DNA from: Dictyostelium discoideum
Taxonomy: Eukaryota
Reading direction: 5' to 3'
Assembly (NCBI GenBank): GCA_000004695.1
Contig: CM000152.2
Span: forward strand, 5,792,001 to 5,856,000
DNA: 64,000 bases
A model generated the notes under the pieces. The model did no database searches. It saw only the letters and a program-made list of their open reading frames with translations, and was not told the DNA's origin. Within the stretch, counting starts at the first letter, position 1. Each line of letters opens with the position of its first letter. The translations under genes and the position numbers were made by a program. Positions 30,316-30,710 of this stretch are shown here, one piece after another.

Positions 30316-30710
30316 ATGTATGTCACATCTAGAATTGGAAAAGTAGTAGATGCGTCAAAAGTGCAAGTTAGAAAAGTGTAATATAGTTATCTATTTATTA
30401 TCATAACTATTCCTATAACTATTCCTCTTTCTATTCCTATTCTTTTATACTGATAAATAATTATAATTATTATTATTATTATTATTAATTTAAACTAAAA
30501 TTCAGAAATATCGGAGGTAATACAATTTCCACACCATGTATAGACGTTTGTAAATTAGATCCATCTTCAGGTTTTTGTATGGGATGTGCTAGAAATAAAG
30601 AAGAGATTGGATCATGGAGCACAAAAAAAGAGGAAGAAAGAGTAAGAATAATAGAAGAAGAATTACCAGAAAGAAAACAGTATATACACTATCCTCCAAT
30701 TAATAAATAA
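30316..30710 (+). CDS. Small (about 88 aa) DUF1289/YdhL-like Cys-motif protein (putative Fe-S/metal-binding). Two exons: 30316..30377 and 30506..30710, intron 30378..30505 (128 nt). Not in the supplied ORF track because each exon is under 60 codons.
   Basis: Exon 2 encodes 'NIGGNTISTPCIDVCKLDPSSGFCMGCARNKEEIGSWSTKKEEERVRIIEEELPERKQYIHYPPINK*'. It matches the E. coli YdhL/DUF1289 signature as I recall it: SPC(R/I)G(I/V)C..D..GFC.GC.R...E...W. Exon 1 is 'MYVTSRIGKVVDASKVQVRKV' (ATG at 30316), ending with 2 nt of a split codon before donor GTAATA. The acceptor ...AATTCAG at 30504-30505 gives a continuous frame (GT+A = Val). The local GC content is clearly above the intergenic background. Confidence 0.6.

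Follow-up and report, generated by a model that had tools for sequence, protein, structure and literature searches.

We conclude that DDB_G0282477, an annotated single-copy gene of Dictyostelium discoideum, is very probably a genuine two-exon gene under purifying selection, whose 88-aa product consists almost wholly of a single DUF1289 (YdhL-type) domain, with a probable bacterial origin and a candidate Cys4 metal site. The gene lies between a RhoGEF gene and BCAS2 in the window studied here, a stretch of 64,000 nucleotides of strain AX4 (GenBank assembly GCA_000004695.1, contig CM000152.2, positions 5,792,001 to 5,856,000 of the forward strand). Existing records in dictyBase, RefSeq, UniProt, and two genome papers already cover the gene along with its domain and its likely origin in bacteria. 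Our additions are modest. They take the phyletic range deeper, show that intron and synteny are conserved, describe presequence-like extensions in lineages that branched early, and include the finding that no structural relative could be identified.

Gene model and genomic surroundings

The peptide MYVTSRIGKVVDASKVQVRK is encoded by the first exon (Table 1), which also supplies two bases of codon 21. Removal of the intron yields an in-frame coding sequence of 267 nt and an 88-aa protein, MYVTSRIGKVVDASKVQVRKVNIGGNTISTPCIDVCKLDPSSGFCMGCARNKEEIGSWSTKKEEERVRIIEEELPERKQYIHYPPINK. The longest ATG-initiated open reading frame at the locus is only 43 aa long, and the gene is therefore missed by ORF-length-based calling, as the initial annotation had pointed out. 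That annotation also described a GC-richer island, and the composition agrees: the exons have 31-34% GC, compared to 15.6% in the intron and 8-12% in the flanks.

Table 1 Features of the DDB_G0282477 locus (positions within the window)
Feature	Positions	Strand	Description
Upstream neighbor, 3' exon of RhoGEF + PH gene	28890-29924	+	Pfam RhoGEF, 88 bits; SOS1_NGEF_PH, 28.6 bits
5' intergenic/promoter region	29925-30315	+	RhoGEF stop to ATG; 8-12% GC; almost pure A-run of ~90 nt (~30150-30248)
Exon 1	30316-30377	+	62 nt, ATG to phase-2 donor
Intron	30378-30505	+	128 nt, GTAATA...TTCAG, 15.6% GC, contains (ATT)n run
Exon 2	30506-30710	+	Last base of codon 21 to TAA stop (30708-30710)
DUF1289 (PF06945) domain	30531-30674	+	Residues 30-77, Pfam match
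Invariant Cys codon, C32	30537-30539	+	
Invariant Cys codon, C36	30549-30551	+	
Invariant Cys codon, C45	30576-30578	+	
Invariant Cys codon, C48	30585-30587	+	
Downstream convergent neighbor, BCAS2 exon	30824-31297	-	Pfam BCAS2, 140.9 bits

A longer start or an additional upstream exon was considered for D. discoideum and rejected. Reading upstream of the ATG in frame runs into a stop just before 30286, and the 390 nt in front of the gene consist of A-runs at 8-12% GC without a plausible open reading frame. The Pfam matches of the two flanking genes agree with their initial assignment as RhoGEF (here with a PH domain) and BCAS2.

Low-complexity DNA typical of Dictyostelium surrounds the gene. 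The RhoGEF gene has a C-terminal tail with a poly-Gln run (QQQQQQQQQQ) and Ser-rich tracts (29790-29830), a form of coding low complexity typical of D. discoideum, and (ATT)n microsatellites occur in the intron (30466-30486) and directly after the stop codon (30735-30775). A repeat finder detected only simple AT-rich microsatellites and the A-run at this locus. A search of the intron and exons for noncoding RNA against Rfam returned only mir-7398 (30647-30702, minus strand), which at 35.7 bits falls below the gathering score of 44 and was rejected; the match lies opposite the A/G-rich end of exon 2 and almost certainly reflects composition and chance.

Identity and prior record of the gene

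The 88-aa sequence is identical to EAL66098.1/XP_640071.1 ("hypothetical protein DDB_G0282477"), and UniProt Q54SG8 ("DUF1289 domain-containing protein") comprises the same 88 aa; the match to the annotated gene rests on this exact protein identity. Residue-for-residue agreement bears out the junction initially proposed between 30377 and 30506, along with the ATG at 30316, the 62-nt first exon, the GTAATA donor at 30378, the TTCAG acceptor ending at 30505, and the phase of 2. The string STPCIDVCKLDPSSGFCMGCARNKEEIGSW is contained in the protein. The description of the gene as unlisted does not stand, as it is annotated under all three of the identifiers DDB_G0282477, XP_640071.1, and Q54SG8.

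Similarly, the novelty initially attached to a YdhL-like protein in an amoeba was overstated, as the gene is already a horizontal-transfer candidate in the 2005 genome paper (Eichinger et al. 2005) and in Table 2 of Sucgang et al. 2011 (PMC3188802). The table entry reads DUF1289, DDB_G0282477, and D. purpureum 27078, and the gene is one of 16 bacterial-transfer candidates retained from the 18 of the 2005 paper (PMC3188802). The transfer was dated to before the group 4 radiation, and homologues were reported to be lacking from characterized plant, animal, and fungal genomes (PMC3188802). A 2026 D. giganteum preprint repeats the candidacy of DUF1289. DDB_G0282477 is thus literally a member of the Dictyostelium bacterial-transfer set (ThyX, Ppk1, IptA, DUF885, DUF1121, DUF1294, etc.). 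It resembles thyA in that both appear to predate Dictyostelia, but it differs from six other candidates in the set, for which functional data exist, in having none. In the literature we found no functional study of YdhL, DUF1289, PF06945, COG3313, or DDB_G0282477, only list entries and one overexpression screen.

Conservation among dictyostelids and reality of the splice

Orthologues occur in D. firmibasis (87% identity), D. purpureum (59%), Tieghemostelium lacteum, and Cavenderia fasciculata. In all five dictyostelids, one GT..AG intron must be removed to recover the annotated protein, and this intron interrupts a homologous codon in phase 2. Exon 1 measures 62, 62, 62, 68, and 260 nt in the five species (62 nt in D. 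discoideum, D. firmibasis, and D. purpureum), and the introns, whose sequences are unrelated, measure 128, 77, 65, 68, and 123 nt. The peptide encoded by exon 1, ..GK.VD.SK[VL].[VI]R.., is kept in D. firmibasis, D. purpureum, T. lacteum, and C. fasciculata. It forms a eumycetozoan-specific N-terminal block that bacterial homologues do not have, and in a transcript of Ceratiomyxa fruticulosa the homologous block is contiguous with the domain. Relative to D. firmibasis, dN/dS is 0.09 overall, 0.23 in exon 1, and 0.06 in exon 2. This comparative evidence argues strongly that the two-exon splice model is real.

The genomic setting is conserved as well. BCAS2 is also the convergent downstream neighbor in D. 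purpureum, D. firmibasis, and C. fasciculata; in T. lacteum (LODT01000016.1) this neighbor has been lost, and the DUF1289 gene follows the DPM2 gene. Codon usage of the gene is AT-rich. The gene resides in a eukaryotic genome, as the conserved spliceosomal intron and the syntenic eukaryotic neighbor BCAS2 show; together with the AT-rich codon usage, they distinguish it from contamination.

The DUF1289 domain

The protein matches PF06945 with 60.8 bits (E ~1e-16; 1.1e-16) over profile positions 1-46 of 47, a match well outside chance. The gathering cutoff of this family is 27 bits, so the assignment to DUF1289/YdhL made initially passes the threshold that had been named as its check. No NCBIfam model matches the 88-aa protein. 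In an alignment of 120 sequences, P31, C32, C36, C45, G47, C48, R50, E54, W58, R66, and R77 are invariant. The D. discoideum protein carries the Cys signature P-C-x3-C-x8-C-x-G-C, followed by R-x3-E-x3-W (R50, E54, W58) and then two conserved Arg residues (R66, R77). The four-Cys pattern C-x3-C...C-x-GC was read correctly from the raw sequence, its four Cys (C32, C36, C45, and C48) being invariant in the 120 homologues. The accompanying tail motif, given as E-I/F-x-W, needs correction, as the conserved form is E-x3-W (EIGSW here, ERFNW in YdhL).

A close known counterpart is E. coli YdhL (b1648; COG3313, "predicted Fe-S protein YdhL"; PF06945), and the YdhL string cited for comparison, SPCRGICQSDERGFCRGCFRSRDERFNW, is correct, with ydhL read from the MG1655 genome. 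Both proteins are small, with a single domain (79 aa in YdhL, 88 aa here), and they share P-C-x3-C...C-x-G-C-x-R-x3-E-x3-W...R...R. However, overall identity is only ~24%, the spacer between Cys2 and Cys3 is one residue shorter in YdhL, and the amoeba protein, unlike YdhL, has the extra conserved N-terminal block, encoded by a separate exon, and a conserved Q-Y-I-H-Y-P tail at the C terminus.

An AF2 model of the amoeba protein has a mean pLDDT of 71 (~80 in the domain), with helices at residues 52-56 and 63-78 and N-terminal strands of low confidence. Among PDB sequences, phmmer returned only chance matches to Cys-rich TNFR sequences at E > 5, and a profile search returned only uS2 at E = 1.2. 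Sequence, profile, and fold searches thus found neither a solved structure nor a fold relative of DUF1289.

Bacterial contexts and functional hints

In E. coli MG1655, 48 nt separate ydhL from the downstream gene ydhF (a putative oxidoreductase); sodC is adjacent to ydhL, and nemR-nemA-gloA run divergently from it. Overexpression of ydhL was recovered in both H2O2 and HOCl resistance screens (PMC8228696), and this phenotype is the only functional hint found for YdhL. The DUF1289 neighbors in Caballeronia include GST, a Fer2/FAD reductase, and G6PD, and one metagenome-assembled genome (MAG) has a gene of the glyoxalase family that overlaps the stop codon of DUF1289. These hints recur, weakly, around redox and electrophile stress. 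Contexts in Paraburkholderia (LysE, AsnC, and DUF1993) add to a heterogeneous picture, and the redox theme must therefore be considered anecdotal.

Another bacterial arrangement involves a gene for a membrane-anchored, retropepsin-like aspartic protease of ~233 aa (PF13975/PF13650). At 34 or more of the 76 bacterial loci, this gene lies on the same strand as DUF1289 and its start overlaps or adjoins the DUF1289 stop codon, the offset ranging between an overlap of 4 nt and a gap of 13 nt (among L012-L091, e.g., L012:3989-4186 and 4183-4887). All of these loci, at least 34, fall in the Hyphomicrobiales-dominated alphaproteobacterial part of the 76-locus set, where they include Rhizobiaceae, Phyllobacteriaceae, Brucella, Microvirga, and several unclassified alphaproteobacterial MAGs. 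In Hyphomicrobium (L005-L008), the retropepsin-like protease gene follows DUF1289 after 5 nt. The arrangement looks like translational coupling, and we found no published link between DUF1289 and a retropepsin-like protease. Genes for a DBI_PRT-family (PF02277) phosphoribosyltransferase and a Dus-family dihydrouridine synthase are often close by at the protease-coupled loci. We rejected a conserved operon partner as a clue to function, as the protease coupling is restricted to one order (Hyphomicrobiales) and contexts elsewhere are heterogeneous; the bacterial contexts converge on no single pathway.

The domain also occurs in larger or repeated architectures: N terminal to DUF6925 in proteins of 286-310 aa (P0082, P0090, P0147, and P0047), C terminal to a YbaK/prolyl-tRNA-editing domain in proteins of ~222 aa (P0298 and P0300), and as a tandem double DUF1289 of 89 aa (P0010). 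The core domain is the same in the protease-coupled genes and in the DUF6925 and YbaK fusions, with comparable Pfam scores. In contrast to the coupled and fused bacterial forms, the amoeba gene is stand-alone.

In Logan assemblies SRR324568xx, a DUF1289 gene (L009:5001-5210, also L010 and L011) has an N-terminal poly-Asn run that varies in length between cluster members. Other genes on these contigs, which have 35% GC, match PHROG families (ATP-dependent DNA ligase phrog_114, a protease, and unknowns), and the domain is therefore carried by a phage-like element as well. A tblastn search of GenBank phages with the Dictyostelium protein gave one weak match only.

A candidate Cys4 metal site

Judging from its motifs, the protein is most likely a small Cys4 metal-binding (Fe-S or Zn) protein. 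The four invariant Cys (P-C-x3-C-x8-C-x-G-C) would ligate one metal center, either an Fe-S cluster or Zn, and the helical segment that follows, with invariant R50, E54, W58, R66, and R77, is the proposed partner-binding surface. The protein would then most likely act as a small accessory or redox-linked factor and not as an enzyme.

Which metal would be bound divides the possibilities. The spacing C-x-G-C is typical of zinc knuckles, and the four Cys could form a structural zinc site, of the zinc-knuckle or treble-clef type, in a protein- or nucleic acid-binding module without redox chemistry. The knuckle-like spacing in the amoeba protein fits such a site, the invariant Arg and Trp on the following helices are suggestive of a binding surface, and the fusion of the domain as a module to a YbaK-type deacylase and to DUF6925, as well as its tandem copies, is in keeping with a binding module. 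On the other hand, the COG3313/IMG name is "predicted Fe-S protein" (although this is itself a prediction), the oxidant-resistance phenotype in E. coli and the redox neighbors fit a redox cofactor slightly better, and the fold search found no match to known zinc fingers. We regard a purely structural zinc site as a serious minority possibility.

Distribution, age, and origin

A HMMER search of 1.84 billion cluster representatives returned 3,679 matches at E <= 1e-3. The dictyostelid cluster scores 110.8 bits, and the next matches score at most 68 bits and cover the core domain only. Nearly all of the 150 matches listed (of the 3,679) appear to be bacterial or metagenomic, in agreement with the initial characterization of the family as predominantly bacterial. 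Eukaryotes are represented, as far as we could identify them, by four dictyostelid genera and Ceratiomyxa. Named relatives belong to the Alpha- and Betaproteobacteria (Hyphomicrobium, Methyloceanibacter, Caballeronia, and Paraburkholderia), and a genome scan recovered mostly Hyphomicrobiales and Burkholderiales, with a bias from its single peptide pattern.

Orthologues are present in groups 1, 3, and 4 of Dictyostelia and in a Ceratiomyxa transcriptome; the latter sequence may be contamination by another eukaryote. The occurrence in groups 1, 3, and 4 makes the gene at least as old as the Dictyostelia crown. The published date for the transfer set, before group 4, thus differs from the deeper age of DUF1289 indicated by the Cavenderia, Tieghemostelium, and Ceratiomyxa orthologues. 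As published, a bacterial gene would have entered the amoebozoan lineage; the entry would have preceded the last common ancestor of Dictyostelia and probably also the split from Ceratiomyxa. The flanks of the domain bear on this last step. The similarity between Ceratiomyxa and dictyostelid proteins has a z of 4.5 in the C-terminal flank (reached by 1 of 2,000 shuffles) and of 2.0 in the N-terminal flank (85 of 2,000), and it is collinear, outside the Pfam core, and in regions that bacterial proteins lack. These shared flanks are suggestive of one acquisition before the split of Dictyostelia and Ceratiomyxa.

The N termini of the orthologues differ in a way that may relate to localization. The C. 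fasciculata protein (DFA_08702, 152 aa) starts with MNRYFLLRILQTHCLVAPRQLQQPIIKRLAQFSSSSSS, and the Ceratiomyxa protein (131 aa) starts with MIRARTRITTLITLLNKNLVHKMNYSSSS. Acidic residues are absent from the first 43 aa in C. fasciculata and the first 34 aa in Ceratiomyxa; each stretch has five basic residues and is followed by a Ser-rich linker. By crude composition, these N termini are presequence-like, resembling those of mitochondrial proteins. The proteins of D. discoideum, D. firmibasis, D. purpureum, and T. lacteum are without such an extension, and their first acidic residue is at position 12. Measured against an acid-free stretch of 20-60 aa rich in Arg/Lys and hydroxylated residues, the D. 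discoideum protein does not qualify, with an acidic residue at position 12 and only 30 residues before P-C. The ancestral eumycetozoan form probably had a mitochondrial presequence, which would have stayed presequence-like in Cavenderia and Ceratiomyxa and been lost in the D. discoideum, D. firmibasis, D. purpureum, and T. lacteum proteins.

Combined, these elements would make up a tentative history that we consider possible but on balance doubtful as a whole: a single entry into the common ancestor of Dictyostelia and Ceratiomyxa (Eumycetozoa), where the gene would have gained its spliceosomal intron, a lineage-specific N-terminal beta-strand block, and a mitochondrial presequence and encoded a small mitochondrial Cys4 metalloprotein. 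The presequence would later have been lost toward T. lacteum and Dictyostelium (groups 3 and 4), with the protein then residing in the cytosol or being imported independently of a presequence.

Core-domain phylogeny was tried as a means of deciding between transfer and ancient origin and was set aside as uninformative (38% and 0% bootstrap). In a neighbor-joining tree of 50 columns, an alignment with little signal for placing the amoebozoan sequences, dictyostelid monophyly has 38% bootstrap, Ceratiomyxa is joined to the dictyostelids in 0 of 100 replicates, and no bacterial sister is supported. Two independent transfers of DUF1289, one into Dictyostelia and one into Ceratiomyxa, would be in line with this tree, where Ceratiomyxa groups with bacterial or metagenomic sequences in place of dictyostelids (0/100) and its nearest core-domain neighbors are non-dictyostelid. 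However, fifty columns carry little signal, and the collinear flanks absent in bacterial proteins (D-x-S-x-I/V-x-I/V upstream and Q-x-I/V-H-Y/F-P downstream) speak against separate origins, which we consider unlikely.

A different origin would be an ancient, mitochondrion-derived gene (alphaproteobacterial and endosymbiotic) that was kept by Eumycetozoa and lost in most other eukaryotes, with no recent lateral acquisition. The presequence-like N termini of Cavenderia and Ceratiomyxa, the predominance of Alphaproteobacteria (mainly Hyphomicrobiales) among the best genome matches, and an age greater than the Dictyostelia radiation are all compatible with such a history. However, the taxonomy of the genome matches is biased by the single peptide pattern used, and Burkholderiales score equally well. 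The dictyostelid cluster and Ceratiomyxa are the only eukaryotes among the 150 matches listed, and homologues in plants, animals, or fungi are absent according to Sucgang et al. (PMC3188802); many independent losses would be required. We therefore view endosymbiotic descent as improbable. Finally, the notion of a chance ORF, a pseudogene, or bacterial assembly contamination, which has only the short ORF length in its favor, is already refuted by the spliceosomal intron at a conserved site, the AT-rich codon usage and syntenic eukaryotic neighbors, the dN/dS of 0.09, and the Pfam score of 60.8 bits, and has essentially no chance of being correct.

Implications

As a discovery, DDB_G0282477 carries little weight, given that the gene, its domain, and its likely origin were already on record. 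It is of some methodological interest that a reading of the raw sequence, made without tools, recovered the exact two-exon model in spite of a longest ATG-initiated ORF of 43 aa. The biological interest lies in the family itself: DUF1289 is widespread in bacteria, with thousands of cluster representatives, and is without a solved structure. For work on this family, a genetically tractable amoeba whose single-copy orthologue is under purifying selection offers a reasonable starting point, and the presequence-like extensions in Cavenderia and Ceratiomyxa provide a concrete hypothesis on localization. If the single-entry history with a mitochondrial metalloprotein is true, knocking out the gene in D. 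discoideum would offer a tractable eukaryotic route to the function of this bacterially widespread domain.
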